Shown here piece by piece: positions 1-18,996 of a stretch of 64,000 nucleotides of DNA (position 1 is its first letter; each line of letters starts with the position of its first letter). The position numbers and the translations under genes are program-made. Below the pieces are notes generated by a model, which saw nothing but the letters and a program-made list of their open reading frames with translations, ran no database searches and had not been told where the DNA came from. Source of the stretch: an uncultured Sneathiella sp. (GTDB lineage: Bacteria; Pseudomonadota; Alphaproteobacteria; Sneathiellales; Sneathiellaceae); contig NZ_CAXAXA010000005.1 of the NCBI RefSeq assembly GCF_963973085.1, forward strand, positions 224 to 64,223. Direction: 5' to 3'.

Positions 1-162
1 TGCTGACCTTCTATTGCGCCCAGACATAATAACCATCCCCTATGGAGGGAGGCTCATCCTTGCAGTCTGACAACAGCAGCGTATCTGTTTTGTCTGCAAT
101 CGATAAATATAAGCTATTGATTTTATGAAATTTATTTCTTAATCGACTTAGTAACGAGTGGG

Positions 163-221
163 AAATATATGGTATATAATAAATTACTAATGAATATATG
201 GCATAGAATAATATTACTTAT
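163..221. repeat. Two imperfect ~29-bp direct repeats in the AT-rich spacer downstream of the 503-aa gene, possibly iteron-like
   Basis: AATATATGGTATA at 164-176 and AATATATGGCATA at 193-205. Each is followed by an AATAA(A/T)ATTACT-like stretch. Confidence 0.4.
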
Positions 222-278
222 ATTAATAGCTATCTGTAAGTTCATTCAAGTATAATTTGTAAGTATTATTACCAAAAT

Positions 279-1790
279 CTATGTAATGTTCATGTTGTCT
301 ATATATGAATACCACTGATATTGCCTATTTGTATATTCTCTATATTCACCTCCAGATAACATTTCCTCAACATTGCCCATATCTACAAATTTATGCTCTA
401 CAGGTGCGTCATAGGTGAGGATCGACTTGCCGTCTACCTTGGCCATAGCTCCGGCAACCTCCATATAGTAGTGTTCCATATATTCCCTAAGCTCGTCAGC
501 TAAAGCATGGTGCACAAGAAAGCTATCATGCACTGGTAGACACGCATATTGCATGTCAGCAAATCTAAGCATGACTTTTTCTGCTATATCAGCGTCCTTT
601 TTCTGTAATTGCAAACCAAACCCGGAGCCAAAATACTCCCTAATAGGAGAGTGCGCATCTATGATAGCTTCCAATAGTTCTTGCCATGAGCAACCGGCGT
701 CCATCTCGTTAAAGTCGCTGTGCTGTTTGATATTCTTGTTAGAAGCATTCACCAGCGAATTAAAGGCAACTTTCTTAACATCACGGACAACATTTTCCAA
801 ACCCATATCATATGGATCTAGGGGAGGGGTAACGCCAACCTCTGCATACACCAAAGCCGGATGCATTCCTGAGTAATCGAGTTCTACTGTTTGCTTACCA
901 TTGATATGAATGTATTTCCTGTATTCTTTGGGAATTCCTAGCCACCATGCGCCATAAAAACGGCCACCTTCGTTCCAACTGCTATTGTTAAAGATCCGTC
1001 TCAGCGTACGCGCACTAACATCTATTGACGGCAGGGCTTCTTCATCTTCCAAATGCCTGTTCCAAACGTGCCGTCTCAAGGCTTCAAACTCTGTATCTTT
1101 CAAATATAAATCAATCCAAAAAGTTGATAGGTGCCTATTGATACGTTCTAAATTTTCCGACATTTTCGTTGTTTGACTATTATGCTCGTAAGGAATGATA
1201 TCTTTATTTTCATCCTTGAGAACAATATTGTTGCACCCTTCTAATTGCCGTATCTGCCACAGAGTAATATGGGCCTGCTCTTCCAGTGCCGACATCAGTT
1301 TCTGAGTTGCTCTAATGCGGGTCCGCTTACCTTTACCCTTCTCCTTGTCGAAATGCCCTTTCTTTTCTGTTCTTAAATATCCGCAGGCTTCTAGTCCTTT
1401 ATAGGCTGACTGGACATCCATATAGGAAAGAGCCACTGACTGATAAAAACTGACCATCCTGTGGTAGTTGTTAGTAGGGCTGTACTCATTCTTGTTTAAC
1501 GGCAACCCAAGCTGCATTCGCTTATTTGACTTTCGGGCTACATATAGGTCAAGCACCAGAGCCTTTACCATGCGAGTAAAACCATGATGCGCTCTTATAG
1601 AACGTTTTTTGGAGCGTTCCTCTTTGCCCTCAATCTCATTACATATATTTTGGAGAACTATCTCAAATAAAGGTGACGCAATATCACGCGACCAAAAGAT
1701 AGATCGAGACGGTTGATTTATTTTACGTGACTGGTCATCATAGTTAGCCGCAGCCATAGCTTCTTCTCTTAGCTGCTCGTCCTTAATCAT
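279..1790 (-). CDS. Hypothetical 503-aa protein with a wHTH-like N-terminal region and a C-terminal region carrying polymerase-palm-like motifs. It may be a replication or nucleotidyltransferase protein.
   Basis: ATG start overlaps the upstream stop (ATGA). Residues 120-165 look like a basic winged helix (YMDVQSAYKGLEACGYLRTEKKG...KRTRIRATQKL). Ordered motifs are GGRFY (275-279), ELDYSGMHP (303-311), RDVKKVAFNSLVNAS (336-350) and PVHDSFLV (419-426). No family was recognised outright. Confidence 0.75.
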   Translation of the reverse strand: MIKDEQLREEAMAAANYDDQSRKINQPSRSIFWSRDIASPLFEIVLQNICNEIEGKEERSKKRSIRAHHGFTRMVKALVLDLYVARKSNKRMQLGLPLNKNEYSPTNNYHRMVSFYQSVALSYMDVQSAYKGLEACGYLRTEKKGHFDKEKGKGKRTRIRATQKLMSALEEQAHITLWQIRQLEGCNNIVLKDENKDIIPYEHNSQTTKMSENLERINRHLSTFWIDLYLKDTEFEALRRHVWNRHLEDEEALPSIDVSARTLRRIFNNSSWNEGGRFYGAWWLGIPKEYRKYIHINGKQTVELDYSGMHPALVYAEVGVTPPLDPYDMGLENVVRDVKKVAFNSLVNASNKNIKQHSDFNEMDAGCSWQELLEAIIDAHSPIREYFGSGFGLQLQKKDADIAEKVMLRFADMQYACLPVHDSFLVHHALADELREYMEHYYMEVAGAMAKVDGKSILTYDAPVEHKFVDMGNVEEMLSGGEYREYTNRQYQWYSYIDNMNIT

Positions 1791-2743
1791 CCGTTTATAT
1801 CCTTAATTTTGGTGCTACTTAGGACTATTTCAGCCAGTTTCTTAGGGTCCACACCATCGCCGTAAGCCCTCTTCGTACCTTCTTCATCTGCGAACTCCAA
1901 CCAGTGCATTCCTTCAACCACGCTGTCAGGGTCTTGTCGCTTAACTTCTTCAAAGTACCTTTTTTTGTACTCCACGAAATCTATTCCATCGTTCTGTTTA
2001 TGAGTTCGGCTAGTCTCATCTTCAAACCCCTTTTTTGCCCAGACAGCAAAGCTGGTGCTATCGTCTTTAATTGCAGTTATACCTGCTGTAGCTCTATTTT
2101 TTAGCTTGTTTGCACCGCCATTAACTAGAGCCTTATATATGGAATAGATGAAACATCCGACTTCTTCAGCGACTACTATCGGAACCTCGAGAAACACGAA
2201 AAACATTGAAGATATCCCACCGAATATACCGACAAAAATAGCCAGCGCCGAGCCAACCCCAAGAAAATAAACATTCCATTGTTCATCTGTATCTTTAAAT
2301 ATTAGGATAAACAGAAATACCGACAATCCTATAATTATCCCAATCCCGCCGGAGCCATAGAATATGGGCTTCCAGAGGCCCCGAAACTCTTCGAGAAAAC
2401 TGTTTCGACGAACTTTCCAAATCCAGCTTGCTTCTTTTATTCCTGCAATTGAGTACAAAAGGAAACGAACGCGTTTTTCGAACCAGTCAGTTGGCGACAT
2501 CCAAATCACAACAGCTCTCATGGTAGCCGCAGCGACAAGCAGCTGACCGGCCAGCCTAATTATAGTTAACTGTTCAGTATCGTAGTGCCCGTTCTGAATT
2601 AGTGTGAATAGGATTGTGACCACTACTGGCACGGCTAGTGAAATCAGCAGGTTTCGGAAGCAAAAAATTACGACCACTGTTATGATAGTTGGTATGTCTG
2701 CAATTGTTACTACAAATAACACTAATATTTCTTCTAGTGTCAT
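1787..2743 (-). CDS. Hypothetical polytopic inner-membrane protein with about 5-7 TM segments and a ~100-aa charged soluble C-terminal domain
   Basis: Long hydrophobic runs (ILVLFVVTIADIPTIITVVVIFCF, LLISLAVPVVVTILFTLI, IGIIIGLSVFLFILIF, FLGVGSALAIFVGIFGGISSMFFVFL), followed by a K/E/D-rich tail. ATGA overlaps with both neighbouring genes. Confidence 0.7.
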   Translation of the reverse strand: MTLEEILVLFVVTIADIPTIITVVVIFCFRNLLISLAVPVVVTILFTLIQNGHYDTEQLTIIRLAGQLLVAAATMRAVVIWMSPTDWFEKRVRFLLYSIAGIKEASWIWKVRRNSFLEEFRGLWKPIFYGSGGIGIIIGLSVFLFILIFKDTDEQWNVYFLGVGSALAIFVGIFGGISSMFFVFLEVPIVVAEEVGCFIYSIYKALVNGGANKLKNRATAGITAIKDDSTSFAVWAKKGFEDETSRTHKQNDGIDFVEYKKRYFEEVKRQDPDSVVEGMHWLEFADEEGTKRAYGDGVDPKKLAEIVLSSTKIKDING

Positions 2744-4377
2744 TTTAAACCCTCATTTTCTAAACCAAAGCTCAAACGTTCTATTGCTTCTTTCTTTTGA
2801 GCAACCGTATATCCATCACCAAAATATACTTGTTGCGTTACGCCTTCTTGAGCGTGCCCTACGATAGCTTTAACGAGAGGTTCAGCGACGCCGGATTGAA
2901 GCAAGTTCGTGACCATCGTGTGGCGAAAGCTATGAAACACCAAACCTTGGCCACTCATGCCCACAGCCTTCAAGAACGGACCATTAAACCATCGGCTTAG
3001 ATTTCGCCCGTACCCGGTTCCCTGACTAAGGGATAGCTCATGCAGCAACCTTTGCTTACCTGACTTCTTTAACCTTTCGGCATGCTCTAAGAAGCCGAGT
3101 TCAAGCAACTCAGAATGGATGGGGATTAGGCGTGTTGCAGAGGAAGTCTTGAGCCTTACCCCATCAGCTTTCTCATTAATGTCAAAGCACCATAAACCGT
3201 CTACTTGTCTGACATCACCAAGTTGCAACTGTGCAATCTCGTTGAGGCGTGCCCCTGAATAGATAGCAATGAGGGGTCCCCATCTTTGATATTCTTTCTT
3301 AATTGCGCTGGTTTCATCTTTCAGGATCGCACTGAGTATCTTGCCAATCTGATCCTTAGAGAATGCTGTCCGTTCCCCATCACCTGATTTCTTGAGCTTG
3401 ATGGTAAGGCCGGTAAATACGTTCTTAGAGACATACCCGTTCTTTTCAGCCCACTTGAATAAGCCGTGGCATGCATTGAGATGTTTATTAATTGTTTTCA
3501 CATGCATCCGTTCTACACCCACAACCGTGATAGCATCTTCAAACTTAAGCCCCCTTGTTTTGGGGTTAGAATTAATGTTCTTGGGCACCTGCTGCAAAGT
3601 GCTCTTCACCTTCTGGGCACTCTTGGATGTAATAGAACTACAGGCGATGTCAGCACCCAAAATGGCAAGCAGTAAACTAAAGATTGCCCGATATTCCTTC
3701 TCTGACTTTTTTGTCCAATTGCCGCCCCTTATTCTCTCTTCCACAAACCGCCTGACAAGCTCACTGAGAGGGGTGTCCATACCTTCGCTTGAGGATGGTG
3801 GGCGGGAAGGCTCAGCAGGGCTTGAGAGGTCGTATTCTTCCATCGACTTGTCATAGTCAAGAACATGTTGGCAATAAGCTTTGTAAGAGCTCCTGAACTC
3901 CGTTTCCATAGTTTTATAGGTATCACTGCCTTGAGAGACGGGAAGCCCATACAGGGCGATCAGACGGTCCACAGGCGGCTTTTCGTCGTTAGCCGTATGG
4001 TTGAATATTTCTGGTGCGTCGGATGTTAAAATACTCGATCTTAGGACGTTTAGCTCGAGCCCGCTCAGGCGTCCTTTATCAGCCATAGACGACTTCCGTT
4101 GCTCTAGGAGGCTTGCGAAATGCGACTTAAGCAGGGTTCTTATTTCGTGATATTTCATATTTTTATTGGCAACGCTACTCAGCAATTCATCAGCCCAGTA
4201 TGATAACCACCGTGACAATTGCATGGCAAGGCGATTATCTCTCGTATCCAGAGACACTCTAATATGCGTGCATTTATTGTAAGGATGGAGGGCCTTAGGA
4301 ATAGGCCAACGGAAATAGAAGACGTTGTGTCTGGAAAGCATCAGGTAGGTAGATATATGCATGGATAAATGGCTCAC
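2740..4377 (-). CDS. int: Site-specific tyrosine recombinase (phage-type integrase) with a long N-terminal extension
   Basis: C-terminal catalytic signature: GARLNEIAQL (Arg box), HSFRHTMVTNLL (H-x-x-R), GHAQEGVTQQVY (His...Tyr). N-terminal FYFRWPIPKAL resembles the YYFR-type integrase N-domain. Position 4377 is a GTG; an ATG alternative is at 4362. Confidence 0.9.
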   Translation of the reverse strand: MSHLSMHISTYLMLSRHNVFYFRWPIPKALHPYNKCTHIRVSLDTRDNRLAMQLSRWLSYWADELLSSVANKNMKYHEIRTLLKSHFASLLEQRKSSMADKGRLSGLELNVLRSSILTSDAPEIFNHTANDEKPPVDRLIALYGLPVSQGSDTYKTMETEFRSSYKAYCQHVLDYDKSMEEYDLSSPAEPSRPPSSSEGMDTPLSELVRRFVEERIRGGNWTKKSEKEYRAIFSLLLAILGADIACSSITSKSAQKVKSTLQQVPKNINSNPKTRGLKFEDAITVVGVERMHVKTINKHLNACHGLFKWAEKNGYVSKNVFTGLTIKLKKSGDGERTAFSKDQIGKILSAILKDETSAIKKEYQRWGPLIAIYSGARLNEIAQLQLGDVRQVDGLWCFDINEKADGVRLKTSSATRLIPIHSELLELGFLEHAERLKKSGKQRLLHELSLSQGTGYGRNLSRWFNGPFLKAVGMSGQGLVFHSFRHTMVTNLLQSGVAEPLVKAIVGHAQEGVTQQVYFGDGYTVAQKKEAIERLSFGLENEGLK

Positions 4378-4430
4378 TTCAATGTGCCACCATCAAAACT
4401 AGGTATCTAATGCATTGATTTTAAAGCAAA

Positions 4431-4520
4431 TGGCGGAGGGTCGGGGATTCGAACCCCGGAAGGGCTTGCACCCTTGCTGGTTTTCAAGACCAGTGCATTC
4501 AACCGCTCTGCCAACCCTCC
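4431..4520 (-). tRNA. tRNA-Ser, anticodon UGA, with long variable arm and encoded CCA
   Basis: The reverse complement GGAGGGT..GGTCTTGAAAACC..CGGGGTTCGAATCCCCGACCCTCCGCCA folds manually. It gives a 7-bp acceptor stem, anticodon loop CTTGAAA, a long variable arm, a TTCGAAT T-loop and discriminator G. Confidence 0.9.
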
Positions 4521-4746: not shown

Positions 4747-5733
4747 ATGGCCAAGAAACCTGCGCGTTTTATTCTCTTCACCCTGTTCGGCATTTTTTTG
4801 ACGGCTATCGCAACACCGGGGTTCGCCGCGAAGGAGCCATTCGATCAGTGGCTGACTAAGCTGAAAACAGAAGCGCGGGAAGGCGGGATCAGCCAGGCCA
4901 TCCTCGACAGCGCCTTCGCGGACGTGAAACTCATTGAAAAAGTCGTCAAACTAGACCGCAAACAACCCGAGACCGTCCAGACATTCCAGGAATATATGGC
5001 ACAGCGCCTGCCGCAGTCGCTCGTTGACTCGGGCAAGGCCATGCTCAACCAAAACCGCGCCATACTGGAAGAAGTCGGGCGGGAGTTCGGGGTGCAGCCA
5101 CGTTTCATCGTTGCACTGTGGGGGGTGGAGACACGTTACGGTAAATATACCGGCGGGTTCAGCGTCATTGACGCACTCACCACGCTTGCCTATGACAATC
5201 GCCGGGCGGAATATTTTCGAAAGGAGCTGTTGCTCGCCCTCAAGATCCTTGATGACAACCATATCGCACTTGCCGATATGAAGGGTTCCTGGGCCGGTGC
5301 GATGGGACAATCGCAGTTCATGCCGTCAAGCTTCGTCAATTTCGCCATTGATTATGATGAAGATGGCCGCCGTGATATCTGGACAACCAAGGCTGACGTT
5401 TTTGCCTCTGCTGCGAACTATCTGTCGAAATCCGGCTGGCAGGGCGACCAGACGTGGGGCAGGGAGGTCACTTTGCCCAAGAATTTCGACCTGTCCCTGA
5501 TCGACCTTAAAATCGCCAAACCGATGGCGGAATGGGAAGCCCTTGGCGTTCGTAAAATCGACGGATCCGCCTTACCCTCGCGCCAGCTGGTTGGATCGCT
5601 GGTCCAGCCGAAGGGCGGCAACGGGCAGACATTTCTGGTCTATAACAATTACCGAACCATCCTTAAATGGAACCGGTCCACCTATTTTGCAATGTCCGTC
5701 GGCCATCTTGCCGACCTGATCGGGGATGGGTAA
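4747..5733 (+). CDS. Lytic murein transglycosylase (MltB/SLT_2 family), secreted
   Basis: Signal peptide ending PGFA-AK. Motifs ALWGVETRYG and GAMGQSQFMPSSF. Confidence 0.88.
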   Translation: MAKKPARFILFTLFGIFLTAIATPGFAAKEPFDQWLTKLKTEAREGGISQAILDSAFADVKLIEKVVKLDRKQPETVQTFQEYMAQRLPQSLVDSGKAMLNQNRAILEEVGREFGVQPRFIVALWGVETRYGKYTGGFSVIDALTTLAYDNRRAEYFRKELLLALKILDDNHIALADMKGSWAGAMGQSQFMPSSFVNFAIDYDEDGRRDIWTTKADVFASAANYLSKSGWQGDQTWGREVTLPKNFDLSLIDLKIAKPMAEWEALGVRKIDGSALPSRQLVGSLVQPKGGNGQTFLVYNNYRTILKWNRSTYFAMSVGHLADLIGDG

Positions 5734-5770
5734 GAGAGATGAAGTGCGTAGCGTAAAAGGTATAAGTAAT

Positions 5771-6766
5771 ATGGCGAAATTGAACCAACAGTCCGGACTG
5801 ATTGTCCTCGTCACCACCGCCCTGCTGCTGGCGGGCTGCTCCGAGGTCAGTCTGCTCAGTTATGGCGCGAAGAAATACCATGCCGCGGGAAAAGACACCG
5901 CCGCCGTCGGACCAAACGATGTGGATCGTGGCACTCCGAAACTCGGCAATCCTTATCAGGTGGACGGCATCTGGTACTACCCGAAAGTCGACAATGCCTA
6001 TGACGAGACGGGGATTGCTTCCTGGTATGGGGAGCCGTTTCACGGCCGCCGCACGGCGAACGGCGCCGTGTATGACATGCATAAGCTGACGGCGGCGCAC
6101 AAGACATTGCCCCTGCCAACCGATGTGCGGGTGACCAATCTTGAAAATGGCCGGTCAATCATCGTGACGGTGAATGACCGTGGCCCCTTCGCGCATTCCC
6201 GCATTATTGACCTTTCCTATCGTTCTGCGCAAATGCTGGGCATCGTCAAGAAGGGAACGGCAAAAGTCCGAGTGCAGGTGATTAACGGTGGAAATGGGGA
6301 TCAGACCATTATCGCCAAACCCAAAACTCCCTTGACGGAAAAGAATAATGTTGCCGCTGCACCGCAGGCTACCGTCGTTGCCGATACCCTGGCGCCGCCC
6401 GCTGGCGTTAAGCAGGCGCCAGCACCTAAAATTGAAGCCTTGCCAGCACCGGCCGCCGCCGTTGCCGAAACGCAGGTAACATCGGCGTCCGCCTATAGCG
6501 CACCAACCCCGACTGTCAGCGTTCAGCCGATTACTCAGAGTGATATTTTCATACAGGCCGGCGCTTTCGTTGATTTCAATAACGCCAATATCCTGAGTGC
6601 ACGTCTGTCGTCACTCGGCCCGACGAAAGTCAGTCAGGTTCTGGTCAACGGACAGGATTTCTATCGCGTGCGGGTCGGTCCGGTACCGGATATTGATAAG
6701 GCGGACCAGCTGCTGGCGGACCTGATCAATAATGGTCATACGGAAGCTCGGATTGTGATCGAGTAG
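5771..6766 (+). CDS. rlpA: Septal ring lytic transglycosylase RlpA-family lipoprotein with C-terminal SPOR domain
   Basis: Lipobox LLLAGCS. Double-psi beta-barrel motifs ASWYGEPFHGRRTANG and IIVTVNDRGPF. Ala/Pro linker, then a SPOR-like IFIQAGAF...FYRVRVGP. The ORF opens at 5726; the ATG at 5771 is preferred. Confidence 0.85.
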   Translation: MAKLNQQSGLIVLVTTALLLAGCSEVSLLSYGAKKYHAAGKDTAAVGPNDVDRGTPKLGNPYQVDGIWYYPKVDNAYDETGIASWYGEPFHGRRTANGAVYDMHKLTAAHKTLPLPTDVRVTNLENGRSIIVTVNDRGPFAHSRIIDLSYRSAQMLGIVKKGTAKVRVQVINGGNGDQTIIAKPKTPLTEKNNVAAAPQATVVADTLAPPAGVKQAPAPKIEALPAPAAAVAETQVTSASAYSAPTPTVSVQPITQSDIFIQAGAFVDFNNANILSARLSSLGPTKVSQVLVNGQDFYRVRVGPVPDIDKADQLLADLINNGHTEARIVIE

Positions 6767-6851
6767 GCAAGCCTTAAACTGGCCAAAAACACGCATTAAT
6801 GATAGAAATCACCCGATAACTCGAATTTACTGCGAGAAACCTGAAAAGAGA

Positions 6852-8027
6852 ATGACTGAAAGCCCGACCGCCATGAATTTCTGGACCTCCTCCTTCCGAT
6901 TTTTTTCCGCCCTTTTCCTTTCGCTGTTCTTGATTGCAGGGACTGCCGCTGCGGACCCAATTGAAACCGCGGCCCGGGAAGCGTTTATCTTCGATATGAA
7001 TACGGGTGCCGTTCTGCTGGAGAAGAATGCCGACCAGCTTATGTCTCCAGCCTCCATGAGCAAGTTGATGACCATTACCATGGTGTTCGAGTGGCTGAAG
7101 GACGGCACGCTCAATATGGAAGACACCCTGCCGGTCAGCGAGAAGGCCTGGAAAAAGGGCGGCTCCAAGATGTTTGTCGAAGTCGATACCCGCGTCAGCA
7201 TCGGAGATTTGCTGCGCGGCATTATTGTCCAGTCCGGCAATGACGCCTGTATCGTGGTGGCCGAAGGGCTTGGCGGATCGGAAGAGGGGTTTGCCGAGGC
7301 GATGACCTCGCGGGCTCGGGAACTCGGACTTGAGAAAAGCACCTTCAGGAACGCCACCGGCTGGCCCGATCCGAACCACAAGATGACAGCGCGGGAACTT
7401 GCCCTCCTGGCAAAGCATATCATTCAGGACTTTCCGGAATATTATACCATCTTTGCCGAGAAGGATTTCACCTTCAGCGATATCAAGCAGGGCAACCGGA
7501 ACCCGCTTCTCTATAAAGACAATGGCGCGGACGGCCTTAAAACAGGACATACCGAAGAATCCGGCTATGGCCTTGTCGGTTCGTCGGAGCGGGACGGGCG
7601 ACGCATTATCCTCGTCGTCAACGGCCTTGAAAATGCGAAGGAGAGAAGCCGCGAATCCGAGCGGTTGATGGAATGGGCCTTTCGCGAGTTTAACAACTAT
7701 GCGCTTTTCAAGTCCGGTGACATTGTCGATAACGCCCGGGTCTGGCTCGGCGACAAGGATGTGGTGCCGCTGACCGTGGAATCCGATCTCACCGTCACCC
7801 TGTCCCGTCAGGCCCGCAAGTCCATGACCGTCAAGGTCGTCTATAACGAACCCATCCCGGCTCCAATAATCAAGGGAACGCCGGTGGCGCAGCTCGTGGT
7901 TTCCGGCCCCGAAATCGAGACCATTGCCGTGCCCTTGGTCGCGATGGAGGATATCTCTCGCCCCGGCACGTTCAAGCGCCTAACCTCCGCAGTCGAGTAT
8001 CTCGTCTTCGGTCCTTCCGCCAATTAG
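6852..8027 (+). CDS. D-alanyl-D-alanine carboxypeptidase (PBP5/6 class)
   Basis: SxxK (SMSKLMT), SxN (QSGND) and KTG (LKTGHT) motifs, plus a signal-like N-terminus. Confidence 0.9.
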   Translation: MTESPTAMNFWTSSFRFFSALFLSLFLIAGTAAADPIETAAREAFIFDMNTGAVLLEKNADQLMSPASMSKLMTITMVFEWLKDGTLNMEDTLPVSEKAWKKGGSKMFVEVDTRVSIGDLLRGIIVQSGNDACIVVAEGLGGSEEGFAEAMTSRARELGLEKSTFRNATGWPDPNHKMTARELALLAKHIIQDFPEYYTIFAEKDFTFSDIKQGNRNPLLYKDNGADGLKTGHTEESGYGLVGSSERDGRRIILVVNGLENAKERSRESERLMEWAFREFNNYALFKSGDIVDNARVWLGDKDVVPLTVESDLTVTLSRQARKSMTVKVVYNEPIPAPIIKGTPVAQLVVSGPEIETIAVPLVAMEDISRPGTFKRLTSAVEYLVFGPSAN

Positions 8028-8034
8028 GGCGGCA

Positions 8035-8688
8035 GTGGCTCCGATGCAGTGCGCGAAGCGCAAAGGCGGAAAGTTCATTACGCTGGAAGGGGGCGATGGC
8101 AGTGGGAAATCCACGCAAAGCCGTCTTCTTGCCGAGTTCCTTGAGGCCCAGTCCATAGAGACTTTGCTGACACGGGAGCCCGGAGGCGCACCGGGCGCAG
8201 ATGAAATTCGTGAACTGATCCTGACCGGGGATCCGGATCGCTGGGATGCTATCGGCGAGACTTTGCTTTTCTATGCCTCCCGCAGGAACCACCTCCGACT
8301 GACGATCTGGCCAGCACTCGACGAAGACCGCTGGGTTATCTCCGATCGCTTCGCCGATTCAACCATGGCCTATCAGGGGTATGGCAATCAGCTAGGCGAA
8401 GAGGCTGTACAGCGAATCCACGACTTCGCCGTCGGCAGTTTCGCGCCGGACCTTACCTTCATCTTCGATATTCCGGCGGAGGAGGGGCTGAAGCGCACCA
8501 TGGGCCGCACCCATGACGAAGACCGCTTCGAGAAAATGACCCTGTCCTTTCACGAACGCCTGCGGGACGGCTTTCTCGATATCGCCCGGAAAAATCCGGA
8601 CCGCTGCGTCCTGATCGACGCGACCCGGTCTGTCGATGCCATCCAGAAGGAGCTGCGCGAGACAGTCGCCGCGCGCCTGTTGCCATGA
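8035..8688 (+). CDS. tmk: dTMP kinase
   Basis: P-loop LEGGDGSGKST and DRFADSTMAYQG. GTG at 8035; an alternative ATG is at 8044. Confidence 0.9.
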   Translation: MAPMQCAKRKGGKFITLEGGDGSGKSTQSRLLAEFLEAQSIETLLTREPGGAPGADEIRELILTGDPDRWDAIGETLLFYASRRNHLRLTIWPALDEDRWVISDRFADSTMAYQGYGNQLGEEAVQRIHDFAVGSFAPDLTFIFDIPAEEGLKRTMGRTHDEDRFEKMTLSFHERLRDGFLDIARKNPDRCVLIDATRSVDAIQKELRETVAARLLP

Positions 8689-9785
8689 CGGATTTACCGG
8701 TCTCTGACAAGCTGGAGGGATATCCGCATCCGCAGGACCGCATGGAGCTCATCGGCCATGATGCGGCGGAAAAGCGCTTCCTTGAAAACTATCTAAGTGG
8801 CCGGTTTCATCATGCCTGGCTCATTACGGGAGCAAAAGGCGTCGGCAAGGCAAGTTTCGCCTACCGCGCGGCCAAATTTCTGCTGAGCCAGCAGGGAGAG
8901 GGGGGCGGTGGCCTGTTCGGACCGCCGGACAGCCTTGATGTTCCCGAGGGCGATCCGGCACTCGCGCTGATCCGCGCCGGATCACATCCGGGCCTCGCGG
9001 TACTCAGGCGGCAATATGACGTAAAAAACAAAAAGTTTTTCAGCGTTATCCGCGTCGATGATGTTCGTGCCCTCAACCAGTTTTTCCAGTTGACCGCCTC
9101 TGAAGGAAGCTGGCGCATCGTTATCGTCGATCCGGTCGATGAAATGAACCAGAACGCCGCCAATGCGATCCTGAAAATACTCGAAGAACCGCCGAAGAAA
9201 ACGCTTTTCCTCTTGCTCTCCCATACACCGGCAAGTCTGCTGCCGACAATCCGCTCACGCTGTCGTCAACTGGCGCTACGACCGCTCAGCGATGATGACA
9301 TGCGACGGTTTCTCGCGCCCTACAGCGAGACGATTTCCCCTGACCAGCTGGACATGCTCCTGACGCTGGCGGAGGGAAGCCCTGGCATGGCGCTCAGGCT
9401 GCTGGAGGCGGGCGGCCTTGAAATTTTCGCCGATATCCTCGATATCTTCAGGAACTATCCGGTGCTCAACGCCGAGAAACTGCATACACTTGCGGACAAG
9501 AGCGGCCTGAAGGACGGGGAGGCAGGCTATCGCACAATCTGCGAGCTTTACCCCTGGTGGCTGACCCGTCTGGTCCGCGCCGCCAGCGATAATTTCAGTG
9601 ACGGCAATCTGGTTCCCGGAGAAGCGGACATCATGAAAAAAATGGTTTCCCGGCATTCGCCCGCTGACTGGGTTGAAATTTGGGAAAGCGGGAATGACCT
9701 GATAAAAAGGGCAGACGTCATCAACCTTGATCGTAAACAGGTTGTCCTCAACCTGTTTTTGAATGTAGAACGCATGGGCAGGTAA
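8685..9785 (+). CDS. holB: DNA polymerase III subunit delta-prime
   Basis: Follows tmk with an ATGA overlap. Motifs GAKGVGKASFA and IRSRCRQLALRPL. Confidence 0.88.
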   Translation: MTDLPVSDKLEGYPHPQDRMELIGHDAAEKRFLENYLSGRFHHAWLITGAKGVGKASFAYRAAKFLLSQQGEGGGGLFGPPDSLDVPEGDPALALIRAGSHPGLAVLRRQYDVKNKKFFSVIRVDDVRALNQFFQLTASEGSWRIVIVDPVDEMNQNAANAILKILEEPPKKTLFLLLSHTPASLLPTIRSRCRQLALRPLSDDDMRRFLAPYSETISPDQLDMLLTLAEGSPGMALRLLEAGGLEIFADILDIFRNYPVLNAEKLHTLADKSGLKDGEAGYRTICELYPWWLTRLVRAASDNFSDGNLVPGEADIMKKMVSRHSPADWVEIWESGNDLIKRADVINLDRKQVVLNLFLNVERMGR

Positions 9786-16126: not shown

Positions 16127-17614
16127 TTAACGCCGCCACAGGGCCGGGTTGAGCAGGGAAAGCACAGCAAAAAATTCCAGCCGTCCCACCAGCATAGTGA
16201 CACATAATAGCCATTTGGAAAAATTCGGTAAGGCCCCGTAGCTGATAAAATTCTCTTCACCGACAATCACATCCGTGATCAGGGGCTGGGCGGCTGAACC
16301 CGCGTTAGCGAGGTTCGTTACCGCAAGAGAAACCGACGACTGCAGATCGAGCCCATTGAAGGCGAGCAGCAGCGTCACCACGACAAGGGTACCACAATAC
16401 AGAACGAAAAAACTCCAGGCGGAGAGTATCTGCTCACGTGAGATACGCTGATCACCATATGTCAGCGGAAAAACGCTGCTTGGAAAACTGAGACGATTGA
16501 TTTCCGAATTTGACACCTTCATTAGAATACTGAGGCGCATGAGCTTGATTCCCCCAGCCGTCGAGCCGGTCGAACCGCCAATGGTGATTAGAACCAGGAT
16601 CACAAGGAGCGCCCCGATCGGCCAATAATACTGACCGCTGCCGGAGACAAGCGGCATGTTATACCCCGTTGTCGTCACGGCGGAGACAGTATTGAAAACT
16701 GCATATCGCAAGGTATCGGGAATGCTCATATCCGTCTGGGTCATCATCAGGAAGAAAACAAACAGGCTGCCCAGCACGATCACCACCAGCAGATAGCGAT
16801 ATTCTGAGTCCTTGAAATAGGATTGCCGATCGCCATTGAAGAATGACCAGTGGAGAGAGAAATTGACGGCGCCGATCACCATGAAAATCATCAGTACAAC
16901 TTCAATCCCACGGCTGGCGAACGCGGTTCCGGCTGTATTTGACGTCACAAACCCGCCGGTCGACAGGGTACTGAAGGCGTAGCACAGCGCATCAAAGGCC
17001 GACATACCGGAAAACCAAAGCGCAACAATGCAAATGGCCGTCAGCAGGCCATATATCTTCAACAGGGAGAGCACTGCGTAACCAAAACGACGCGAGACCT
17101 GACGGCGGCTGCTCTTGGCGAGCGCCCGGGTGAGAGGATTGTTTCCCGGTAGATTGAAGGCACTCGCCAGGGCAGAAAGGAAGACAATGATCGAAAACCC
17201 GCCCGCCCATTGGATGAGGCTCCGCCACAGCAGGATGGCCCGCGTCTGAATATCAAGATCATCGATAACAGTCGCGCCGTTTGTAGTGAAGCCGGATATG
17301 GCCTCAAAGTAAGAATTGGTCGCCGAGGGGATGGCATCGCTCAGATAGAAGGGCAAGGCGGCAAACGCCGGAAGCACGATCCAGATTAAGGTCGCCGCGA
17401 AGAAAGTCTCCCGTCGCCCCAATATTGTCATTTCCCGCCGCATGGCGAGAACCATGCCGCCGCCGAAGAACAGTGTCACGATCGCCGACACGACAAAGCT
17501 GGCGGCAAGCCCTGCCTGCCCCTGCGCCAGGGCGAAAGCCATCGGCACCAGCATTAGAGCCGCCAGGAATCCCAGAGCCCAGCCCAGAAAGGTAAAGACA
17601 GGTGCAAATAACAT
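16127..17614 (-). CDS. trkH: Potassium uptake protein TrkH
   Basis: Polytopic protein with repeated TTGF/TGG pore-loop-like segments (FTTNGAT, STGGFV, TTTGYN, GGSTGSTAGGIK). Adjacent to trkA. Confidence 0.9.
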   Translation of the reverse strand: MLFAPVFTFLGWALGFLAALMLVPMAFALAQGQAGLAASFVVSAIVTLFFGGGMVLAMRREMTILGRRETFFAATLIWIVLPAFAALPFYLSDAIPSATNSYFEAISGFTTNGATVIDDLDIQTRAILLWRSLIQWAGGFSIIVFLSALASAFNLPGNNPLTRALAKSSRRQVSRRFGYAVLSLLKIYGLLTAICIVALWFSGMSAFDALCYAFSTLSTGGFVTSNTAGTAFASRGIEVVLMIFMVIGAVNFSLHWSFFNGDRQSYFKDSEYRYLLVVIVLGSLFVFFLMMTQTDMSIPDTLRYAVFNTVSAVTTTGYNMPLVSGSGQYYWPIGALLVILVLITIGGSTGSTAGGIKLMRLSILMKVSNSEINRLSFPSSVFPLTYGDQRISREQILSAWSFFVLYCGTLVVVTLLLAFNGLDLQSSVSLAVTNLANAGSAAQPLITDVIVGEENFISYGALPNFSKWLLCVTMLVGRLEFFAVLSLLNPALWRR

Positions 17615-17619
17615 CGGTC

Positions 17620-18996
17620 TTAGAAAAATTCCAGGCCGACGGAAAACATTTCCTCAACCTTGTGAATGGATTCCTGAAGACCGAGAATGATTACCCGGTC
17701 GTCCTCCTGTATAACGGTTTCACCGCGCGGTATTTCAACTCTGTTCCCCTTGATGACGGCTCCGATGATGGTTCCCGGCGGCAGCTTGATATCGCGAAGT
17801 GGCTTCCCGACCAGCAGTGAGGTTTCAAGCGCATCTCCTTCCACTACCTCTGCAGCGCCGTCGCGGAATGAATGCAGACCGCGGATACGGCCGCGGCGGA
17901 TATGACGGAGGATTTCCGACACCGTCGTCGCCCGCGGATCAACCACTACCTCGATGCCGAGCGATGTGACGAGATTGCCAAAAACCGGATTATTGATGAG
18001 GGTAACAGCGGTTTTCGTGCCCTGCCCTTTTGCCAGCAGGGACGACAGGATATTCACCTGGTCATCATTGGTCAGCGCCACAATCGTCTCGGCCCGCGCC
18101 GCGTTGGCCTCCTGCAGAAGCTCCGGATCTATCGCACTGCCATGAAGGACGACCGTCCGGTCCAGTTCTTCGGTAATTTTCTCCGCGCGGGCACGGTTAT
18201 TCTCGATCAGCTTTAGCGAGACGTTCCGCATGTTCTTCTCAACATACTTCGCAAGATGCAGTCCGATATTTCCCCCGCCGACAATGACAATGCTGCGGGC
18301 CTCCTGCTCTTCATGACCGAACAACGGCATGGCACGGGCTACATGATCGGTGTCTGCGGCGAAATAGACTTCATCGTCCGGAAACATCTGATCCCCGCTG
18401 GCAGGAACAATCATCTTCCCATCACGATATATAGCGACAACCACGACGTTAAGGTCAGGGAAAAGCTCCGTTAGCTGCTTGAGCGGCGTATTAACGATCG
18501 GACAGTTTTCATCCAGCCGGACACCAATTACCTGAACTTTCCCGTCGCCGAATGACACCGTATCAAAGGCGCCAGGAACCTTGAGCCGCCGCTCTATCGC
18601 GTGCGCAACCTCAATTTCCGGCGAAATAATGACATCAATGGGCAGGTTTTCACGACTGAACAAATGCGCCCATAACGGATTTGTATATTGCTGCGCCCGG
18701 ATACGCGCTATTTTCTTCGGTATATCGAAAATCGAATGAGCAATTTGGCAGGCGACCATATTGACTTCATCGCTGTAGGTGACGGCAATGATCATATCCG
18801 CGTCATACGCCCCTGCCCGCTCCAGTGCATCGGGATAGGACGCATGGCCAACCATCGTGCGGACATCCAGCTCGTCGCCAAATTTTCGCACAAGTTCGGC
18901 GGACTGATCGATCAGCGTTACGTCATTGCTTTCCTGGGCGAGCTGACGCGCGATATTCGAGCCGACCTGGCCTGCGCCACAAACGATAACTTTCAT
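17620..18996 (-). CDS. trkA: Potassium uptake protein TrkA (two RCK/NAD-binding repeats)
   Basis: Rossmann motifs VCGAGQVGSNIA and IVGGGNIGLHLA. Confidence 0.92.
   Translation of the reverse strand: MKVIVCGAGQVGSNIARQLAQESNDVTLIDQSAELVRKFGDELDVRTMVGHASYPDALERAGAYDADMIIAVTYSDEVNMVACQIAHSIFDIPKKIARIRAQQYTNPLWAHLFSRENLPIDVIISPEIEVAHAIERRLKVPGAFDTVSFGDGKVQVIGVRLDENCPIVNTPLKQLTELFPDLNVVVVAIYRDGKMIVPASGDQMFPDDEVYFAADTDHVARAMPLFGHEEQEARSIVIVGGGNIGLHLAKYVEKNMRNVSLKLIENNRARAEKITEELDRTVVLHGSAIDPELLQEANAARAETIVALTNDDQVNILSSLLAKGQGTKTAVTLINNPVFGNLVTSLGIEVVVDPRATTVSEILRHIRRGRIRGLHSFRDGAAEVVEGDALETSLLVGKPLRDIKLPPGTIIGAVIKGNRVEIPRGETVIQEDDRVIILGLQESIHKVEEMFSVGLEFF

Follow-up and report, generated by a model that had tools for sequence, protein, structure and literature searches.

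A compact integrase, membrane protein and polymerase operon behind tRNA-Ser as the probable core of a TV-Pol-type island in an uncultured Sneathiella species

In a stretch of 64,000 nucleotides (nt) from an uncultured Sneathiella sp. (RefSeq assembly GCF_963973085.1, contig NZ_CAXAXA010000005.1, positions 224 to 64,223 of the forward strand; in the following "the window"), a tRNA-Ser gene is directly followed by three genes for a tyrosine integrase (Int), a membrane protein (Mid), and a polymerase-like protein (Pol). We conclude that these genes are probably the tRNA-proximal integration-and-replication core of a small site-specific island, which is inserted in tRNA-Ser and belongs to the TV-Pol type. 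In its closest complete copy the element has a size of about 10 kb, and its host is a Sneathiella-like marine alphaproteobacterium. Of the explanations considered in the original prediction, a minimal integrate-and-replicate module is the best supported one, as Pol has the features of a TV-Pol and is linked to an integrase, and often to a serine resolvase, across Alphaproteobacteria.

The following features of the locus are used below:

4431..4520, minus strand: tRNA-Ser (anticodon TGA), the integration target on the attL side (ARAGORN; Rfam tRNA, 58 bits)
4431..4447, minus strand: att core of 17 nt, TCCCCGACCCTCCGCCA, at the 3' end of the tRNA (repeated in Sneathiella sp. HT1-7)
4378..4430, minus strand: spacer of 53 nt between the tRNA 3' end and the GTG of int (sequence)
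2740..4377, minus strand: large tyrosine integrase with a DUF6538 N-terminus and a Phage_integrase catalytic domain (Pfam, PHROG)
1787..2743, minus strand: Mid, a predicted polytopic membrane protein with a conserved C-terminal domain (hydropathy)
1790..1984, minus strand: MidC, the C-terminal domain of Mid, residues ~254-318 (alignments, HMMER)
1981..2791, minus strand: mosaic segment comprising the last ~50 nt of int and the part of Mid that codes for the transmembrane (TM) segments (blastn against the HT1-7 copy)
279..1790, minus strand: putative TV-Pol-type minimal A-family polymerase (motifs, AlphaFold2 (AF2) model, Foldseek, PHROG)
1..278, no strand assigned: intergenic region between Pol and a convergent gene, AT-rich with 35% GC, which is a candidate for an ori or res site

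According to the listing of open reading frames (ORFs) and the sequence itself, Int, Mid, and Pol are three overlapping minus-strand ORFs. The Int ORF has 545 amino acids (aa) when counted from the GTG; the first ATG at position 4362 yields the 540-aa version picked by gene callers. Mid consists of 318 and Pol of 503 residues. Reading the reverse strand base by base confirmed the two ATGA overlaps that had been reported at 2740-2743 and 1787-1790: at the Int/Mid junction (2743-2740), the Mid ATG occupies 2743-2741 and the Int TGA 2742-2740, and at the Mid/Pol junction (1790-1787), the Pol ATG occupies 1790-1788 and the Mid TGA 1789-1787. Shine-Dalgarno-like GAGG and AAGGA motifs lie 8-12 nt 5' of the Mid and Pol starts. 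The int GTG is located 53 nt and the first ATG 68 nt past the 3' end of the co-oriented tRNA-Ser(TGA), and both ARAGORN and Rfam agree with the earlier placement of the operon start; an Rfam hit to sX4 over the tRNA was discarded, as it scored far under the gathering score. The three genes thus form one tightly packed unit behind the tRNA, as had been proposed. A site scan found neither a terminator-like nor a sigma-70-like promoter site in the spacer, which is why transcriptional read-through from the tRNA into int appears possible. In the scanned region, promoter-like sites were not commoner than in shuffled sequence; terminator-like sites numbered 10, compared to 4.0 ± 1.9 expected from the shuffles (about three standard deviations above the mean). 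These are weak matches that lie almost all within ORFs, none of them in the spacer or at the two gene junctions. Overlapping genes are also found in relatives: in locus L086 they join Int, Mid, and Pol, in the HT1-7 copy (L007) a 235-aa protein is joined to Pol by an ATGA, and the stop of Int overlaps with the start of Pol in L052. With a GC content of ~42% as opposed to ~55% in the flank, the island is compositionally distinct; it extends past the left end of the window, in which only the tRNA-proximal 4.4 kb are visible.

The assignment of Pol rests on motifs and on fold. Pol comprises an N-terminal domain (residues 1-260) and a core of thumb, palm, and fingers (261-450). In an alignment of 31 relatives, which reach down to 31% identity, the motifs G275-G-R277-F-Y, D305-Y-S, R336xxxK340, and H421-D422-S-F are invariant, and D325 is conserved in at least 90% of the sequences; D305 lies in the context ELDYS, D422 in VHDSF, and the AF2 model places G275-G276-R277-F278-Y279 in strands (275-279). 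Pol possesses the β-hairpin arginine, the two palm aspartates of motifs A and C, and the fingers aspartate together with RxxxK. The family of the TV-Pols, a group of minimal polymerases within family A, is defined by this arginine, by the palm aspartates, and by RxxxK (Iyer, Abhiman & Aravind 2008, PMC2579912). The AF2 model (pLDDT 85.5, pTM 0.82) was compared to the PDB by means of Foldseek; 18 matches reach E ≤ 1e-3, each of them to an A-family DNA polymerase or to a mitochondrial T7-like RNA polymerase (RNAP); Bst is among them, and apicoplast Pol, Klenow, Taq, and mitochondrial RNAPs are at the top. In the BFVD database of predicted viral structures, the matches are 400-450-aa proteins of Aeromonas, Rheinheimera, and other phages (E 1e-23 to 1e-17, TM-score up to 0.73), one of which carries the name DNA polymerase; phage Pol I, T7-like RNAPs, and the replication protein of the Zamilon virophage (E 3e-4) match more weakly. 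A further indicator is the match of Pol to phrog_4756 at 6e-49. No model of Pfam, NCBIfam, or PADLOC matched Pol, among them no Pfam exonuclease, and searching the PDB chains with the Pol sequence and with the 31-sequence profile gave nothing. Taken together, alignment and model show that Pol has the predicted fold of this branch of the A-family polymerases, the TV-Pols, and lacks none of their catalytic motifs.

A k-mer-filtered search yielded 535 relatives of Pol; those with a name are Alphaproteobacteria, for example Rhizobium, Brucella, Xanthobacter, Sulfitobacter, and Hoeflea. Remote homologues with 22-33% identity were observed in 209 phage records (e.g. KT932418.1, 6141-7208), mostly of ~115-140-kb Vibrio, Aeromonas, Pseudoalteromonas, and Rheinheimera phages; many of the records contain two such places, and nearly all of these proteins are annotated as hypothetical. 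The N-terminal domain of Pol (1-260) folds confidently (pLDDT 80). Used alone as a Foldseek query, it found just non-significant matches of the winged-helix type (best E 0.1); as a lead from the model, it may be a winged helix-turn-helix domain that binds the origin.

Int matches Pfam PF00589 with 42.5 bits (cut-off 27.1), PF20172, and the integrase family phrog_1 (8e-40). Its catalytic set is complete (R377, K410, H482, R485, H508, Y518), which shows Int to be, by sequence, an intact tyrosine recombinase at the attL edge. One genome per species was scanned for relatives of Pol, which gave 505, and 79 loci were kept; 39 alphaproteobacterial loci with at least 5 kb on each side of Pol constitute the full-flank set. 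The same large tyrosine integrase (525-600 aa) is the commonest neighbour within 5 kb of Pol (41 of 77 loci). In the full-flank set it occurs within this distance in 27 of 39 loci and at 5.2 and 6.8 kb in two more; a small serine recombinase is present in 13, and one or the other recombinase in 30 of the 39. In loci of the Rhizobiales type, a tRNA, Int, 0-3 further genes, and Pol follow each other on one strand and meet a convergent resolvase; in Rhodobacterales, Pol converges with an Int that is preceded by a co-oriented tRNA-Cys. These data show a genomic linkage of Pol with both this integrase family and the small serine recombinase, and Pol, which had been taken for a cargo gene, is by this evidence part of the core of the element. 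Where a census locus has an integrase, the distance from a co-oriented tRNA to the int gene is 25-97 nt in most cases; the targeted tRNAs are of 11 species (Ser, Met, Val, Cys, Ala, Thr, Tyr, Arg, Gly, Phe, Leu). The place right behind the tRNA thus characterises this integrase family as a whole and is not peculiar to this locus.

The boundaries of the element are best seen in Sneathiella sp. HT1-7. There, the complete island of 10.1 kb has a repeat of the tRNA-Ser 3' end at both edges, namely the 17-nt sequence TCCCCGACCCTCCGCCA in two exact direct copies (7321-7337 and 17450-17466) that are 10,129 nt apart. The window holds a single copy of this 17-mer, and only attL is visible, because the far end of the island lies beyond position 1. 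The Pol proteins of the two islands are 99% identical. At the nucleotide level (blastn), the host flanks have 76%, int 94%, and the block consisting of MidC, Pol, a 223-aa protein (p223), and the resolvase 97-99% identity. As the core is 94-99% identical and the host flanks only 76%, this comparison shows a recent movement of the element core between species. The alignment along the operon gave 94% identity up to position 2792, no match for 2791-1981, and 99% for 1980-1; the sharp mosaic breakpoints near 2791 and 1981 indicate an exchange of cassettes inside the operon. The cargo past the resolvase is entirely different in the window lineage and in HT1-7, where it includes genes for metal resistance and comprises a cytochrome c, LspA, a CDF/HMA transporter, and a MerR regulator. 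In HT1-7, a second, different integrase (17609-18706) starts 143 nt beyond attR, which suggests a tandem array of islands.

Positions 1-278 lie between the convergent genes of Pol and p223 and contain two 19-nt direct repeats (211-193 and 182-164) with a spacing of 29 nt; the block TTACTAAGTCGATTAAGA (154-137) is kept in a relative with 75% Pol identity. A terminator-like hairpin was seen at 50-36. Metagenome contigs that are identical to the window extend it to the left by the convergent p223 gene, a resolvase (PF00239), a 75-aa ORF, and an ATPase; the resolvase occurs downstream of Pol both in L001 and in L007. The ATPase lies behind the 75-aa ORF and is truncated at the end of the contig; its N-terminus (AAA_23/SMC_N; L001:13888-14538) matches the PADLOC model LmuB of Lamassu at 1.7e-12. 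The island of the window lineage therefore probably carries a defence system as cargo. The p223 protein (L001:11798-12469; 223 aa, convergent with Pol) has a signal peptide and matches no family; it was detected in the window lineage and Sneathiella HT1-7 only. The independent metagenome contigs L002, L003, and L006 as well as the left end of the window stop 280-570 nt past the Pol stop codon. These stops suggest variation at the level of the population, with alternative cargo starting from the intergenic region.

The linkage of Pol to an integrase has been known since 2008 from an in silico study, in which TV-Pols that have an N-terminal domain were found beside λ-type integrases and γδ resolvases in compositionally distinct islands and were proposed to be primase-polymerases (PMC2579912). 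These elements, for which Brucella, Rhodobacterales, Sulfitobacter, and Loktanella are listed, resemble the one studied here in having a minimal A-family core without exonuclease, an extra N-terminal domain, and a λ-type integrase and a γδ-type resolvase as neighbours. What that report does not describe is the overlapping operon of Int, optional Mid, and Pol behind a tRNA, att sites at tRNA 3' ends, and Mid or MidC. The one characterised TV-Pol is CCPol of SCCmec, which is a dNTP primase-polymerase when bound to its partner protein MP (Bebel et al. 2020, PMC7581432). The CCPol-MP-Cch2 system (PMC7581432; Rice 2023, PMC10061031) is similar in that a TV-Pol-type polymerase and a small partner protein are encoded in one operon of an island mobilised by recombinases. 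Moreover, the putative ori of SCCmec lies just downstream of the CCPol operon, and the candidate region found here is likewise downstream of pol. The differences concern the partner, the helicase, and the recombinases. MP is an OB-fold single-stranded DNA-binding protein encoded downstream of CCPol and followed by a helicase, whereas the neighbour of Pol is encoded upstream, membrane-anchored, and has no detectable OB fold; Pol is followed by p223, a convergent protein of the secreted type, and then by the resolvase, and there is no helicase in L001 or L007. SCCmec uses large serine Ccr recombinases, whereas a tyrosine integrase and a small resolvase are present here. CCPol is the best functional model for Pol.

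Based on this comparison, the following course of events can be envisaged. Int would excise the element, and the TV-Pol would then prime and/or copy the circular form, probably at the AT-rich repeat region just downstream of the pol gene. It would hand over to replication proteins of the host, because the element encodes no helicase, and the resolvase would then resolve multimers. The compact overlaps would allow one transcript, which may start at the tRNA promoter as long as the element is integrated, to supply Int, Mid, and Pol. Mid would be a fast-evolving, exchangeable, membrane-anchored accessory, with MidC travelling together with the integrase family.

Several findings weigh against an integration-and-replication core. 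Neither this element nor any TV-Pol of the class with an N-terminal domain is known to show enzymatic activity, to be excised, or to replicate as an episome, and the element encodes neither a helicase nor a recognisable initiator. Many relatives of Pol, for example those in the SAR116 loci, have no integrase within 5 kb. The Pol family is almost absent from plasmids (three tblastn matches in 72,556 plasmid records), which speaks against Pol as the replicase of a stand-alone plasmid replicon. The Foldseek TM-scores between Pol and Pol I are low (0.25-0.36), because the similarity is local and restricted to the core. The role of Mid is a guess; most likely, it would tether or regulate the excised element, or its recombination or replication proteins, at the membrane. 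Finally, the sequence of Pol could not be linked with significance to any of the named founding TV-Pols. The best comparison, with the gp030 family of Microcystis phage Ma-LMM01, gave an hhalign E-value of 0.05, with the two families collinear over 325 columns and through all motifs; gp030 is presumably the TV-Pol reported from this phage. Pol profiles (HMM and jackhmmer) found no match in the entire 162-kb Ma-LMM01 genome. The 'putative DNA primase' gp134 of Ma-LMM01 was rejected as a homologue of Pol, as hhalign gave E 0.42 and all Pol motifs are missing; its zinc-finger-like N-terminus suggests a DnaG-type primase.

Mid lacks conservation in its multi-TM part. Hydropathy predicts ~5 TM segments within residues 8-185, and nothing was found for Mid in Pfam, PHROG, NCBIfam, or PADLOC, nor for MidC alone in Pfam or PHROG. 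A word-indexed search with Mid retrieved an identical protein and four proteins that share just its last quarter. An exhaustive HMMER search of 1.84 billion representative proteins gave a single full-length homologue, P0126 (43% identity), which is encoded between an integrase and a 75%-identical Pol in the order Int, Mid, Pol with overlapping stops and starts; the same context in this homologue shows Mid to be a real gene. The 15 other matches are limited to residues ~250-316, and most of those inspected begin with a single TM helix. They correspond to MidC, a domain of ~60 aa for which the alignments gave the pattern F.EY...Y..EVKR.DP..V..G.HW.E..D.EG.KRA..DGV.P..LA. The TM region of Mid was found in two lineages only. 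In HT1-7, the Mid slot is taken by a 97-aa TM protein and a soluble 235-aa protein that ends in MidC; Mid is absent in L052 and in L030, where a 229-nt gap is left. In loci of Rhodobacterales and SAR116, Mid is unrelated or missing, and most loci have no Mid-like gene. What looked like a division of Mid into two ORFs in L004 turned out to be due to a gap in the assembly, where a run of N is translated as X, and not to a frameshift. On contigs devoid of Pol, too, MidC was found with this integrase family, encoded either directly behind the integrase or convergently with it. As MidC occurs beside Int without Pol, it belongs with the element core, and perhaps with Int more than with Pol. By comparison of these loci, the polytopic TM part of Mid is an exchangeable variant of a membrane anchor.

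Two further explanations of Mid have to be considered. Mid could be an independent, exchangeable cargo or exclusion gene in the int-pol slot, which for example blocks the entry of related elements, and its coupling to the neighbours would then merely reflect genome compaction. The cassette-like breakpoints at ~2791 and ~1981, the 0 to 6 unrelated ORFs that fill the slot in other loci, and the quick divergence of Mid (43% identity where Pol has 75%) are in agreement with this idea. On the other hand, the C-terminal ~60 aa are kept through swaps and in distant lineages, usually together with some membrane anchor. This retention argues for a conserved role of MidC that is tied to the element core, and we regard a mere cargo function of Mid as unlikely. 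By analogy to other systems, MidC might instead act specifically as a partner to the DUF6538-type integrase, to the TV-Pol, or to both, and localise excision and self-primed replication at the membrane. A lead in this direction is phage φ29, whose replication is membrane-anchored. A parallel for a partner role is MP, which enables priming by CCPol (PMC7581432). This specific function of MidC seems rather doubtful to us. If it were true, Int, Mid, and Pol would constitute a three-part, membrane-organised machine for excision and copying, and Pol would be the first TV-Pol with an N-terminal domain acting as an origin-specific primase without a helicase of its own.

A different activity of Pol itself is also conceivable. 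As a minimal T7-like single-subunit RNAP, Pol would transcribe the genes of the element or make an RNA primer or a regulatory RNA, independently of the host RNAP. Five residues past the motif A aspartate (D305), a conserved histidine (H310) takes the place of the glutamate that is the steric-gate residue of Pol I, and the motif C sequence HDSF is that of T7-like RNAPs; both features bear on the sugar selectivity of Pol. In addition, the structural matches include RNAPs of mitochondria and phages. The best structural matches, however, are DNA polymerases, the 503 residues of Pol leave out the promoter-recognition and N-terminal domains of T7-like RNAPs, and conserved promoter-like repeats were not found. 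Moreover, CCPol as the only characterised TV-Pol strongly prefers dNTPs (PMC7581432). Taken together, an RNAP function of Pol is improbable.

The defence-type pair suggested in the original prediction, in which a product made by Pol upon phage infection activates the multi-TM Mid as a membrane-disrupting effector in the manner of retron, DRT, or CBASS systems and which hitch-hikes with the integrase, is highly improbable: the tight coupling of the genes, the ~5 TM segments, the TM version next to Pol in a second lineage (43% identity), and the fact that such islands do carry defence cargo like the LmuB-like ATPase in L001 would fit, but Int, Mid, and Pol match no PADLOC family, an unrelated soluble sequence replaces the TM region in the Sneathiella copy despite a 99%-identical Pol, L052 and L030 have no Mid, loci of Rhodobacterales and SAR116 have an unrelated one or none, the sole conserved part of Mid also occurs beside the integrase without any Pol, and the partner conserved with Pol is a recombinase and not a TM protein. 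The defence reading thus fails the refutation criterion set for it, as Pol and a TM partner are not conserved together.

Two further kinds of element come close to the one described here. Tycheposons (Hackl et al., bioRxiv 10.1101/2020.12.28.424599) are alike in organisation: an inward-facing tyrosine integrase at a tRNA is adjacent to a small replication module (here a predicted one), followed by an optional small serine recombinase and by niche or defence cargo; the hosts are marine bacteria, and tRNA-Ser TGA is among the labelled targets. Related elements were reported from Alphaproteobacteria, and polymerases, primases, and helicases are named for the replication modules. Note that tycheposons are defined partly by a specific lineage of tyrosine integrases; the likeness stated here is one of organisation. 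Pipolins (PMC11551731) are integrative islands as well, which combine a tyrosine recombinase, a self-priming DNA polymerase, and defence cargo; their polymerase belongs to family B (primer-independent PolB) and is not homologous to the A-family TV-Pols. The locus is a good, fairly ordinary example of a kind of element that was predicted computationally in 2008; it reveals no new kind of system and no new defence system. The one undescribed feature is the family of membrane-anchored MidC proteins. TV-Pols are a widespread and almost uncharacterised branch of A-family polymerases, whose biochemistry is derived from a truncated staphylococcal CCPol alone. The locus is a very compact example, and the near-identical, fully bounded copy in the cultured strain Sneathiella sp. 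HT1-7 offers a practical test system. It can serve to address whether small marine islands replicate after excision, whether a minimal Pol I-like enzyme primes DNA synthesis, and how cargo for defence or metal resistance shuttles between species.

Two observations concern the surroundings of the element. A scan of metagenomes for the junction of att core and int, which is expected for excised or tandem forms, found one contig, L150. It contains only the att core and an int remnant of ~33 codons from the 5' end (2511-2698, 83% identity), no tRNA in its 9.3 kb, and a second short match to the region after attR in L007; it is probably a decayed remnant of an island. On the other side of the tRNA, the host flank (window 4747-9785) encodes an SLT_2 lytic transglycosylase, an RlpA-like DPBB/SPOR protein, a D-Ala-D-Ala carboxypeptidase, thymidylate kinase, and DNA polymerase III δ', and the order of these genes is the same in Sneathiella HT1-7.

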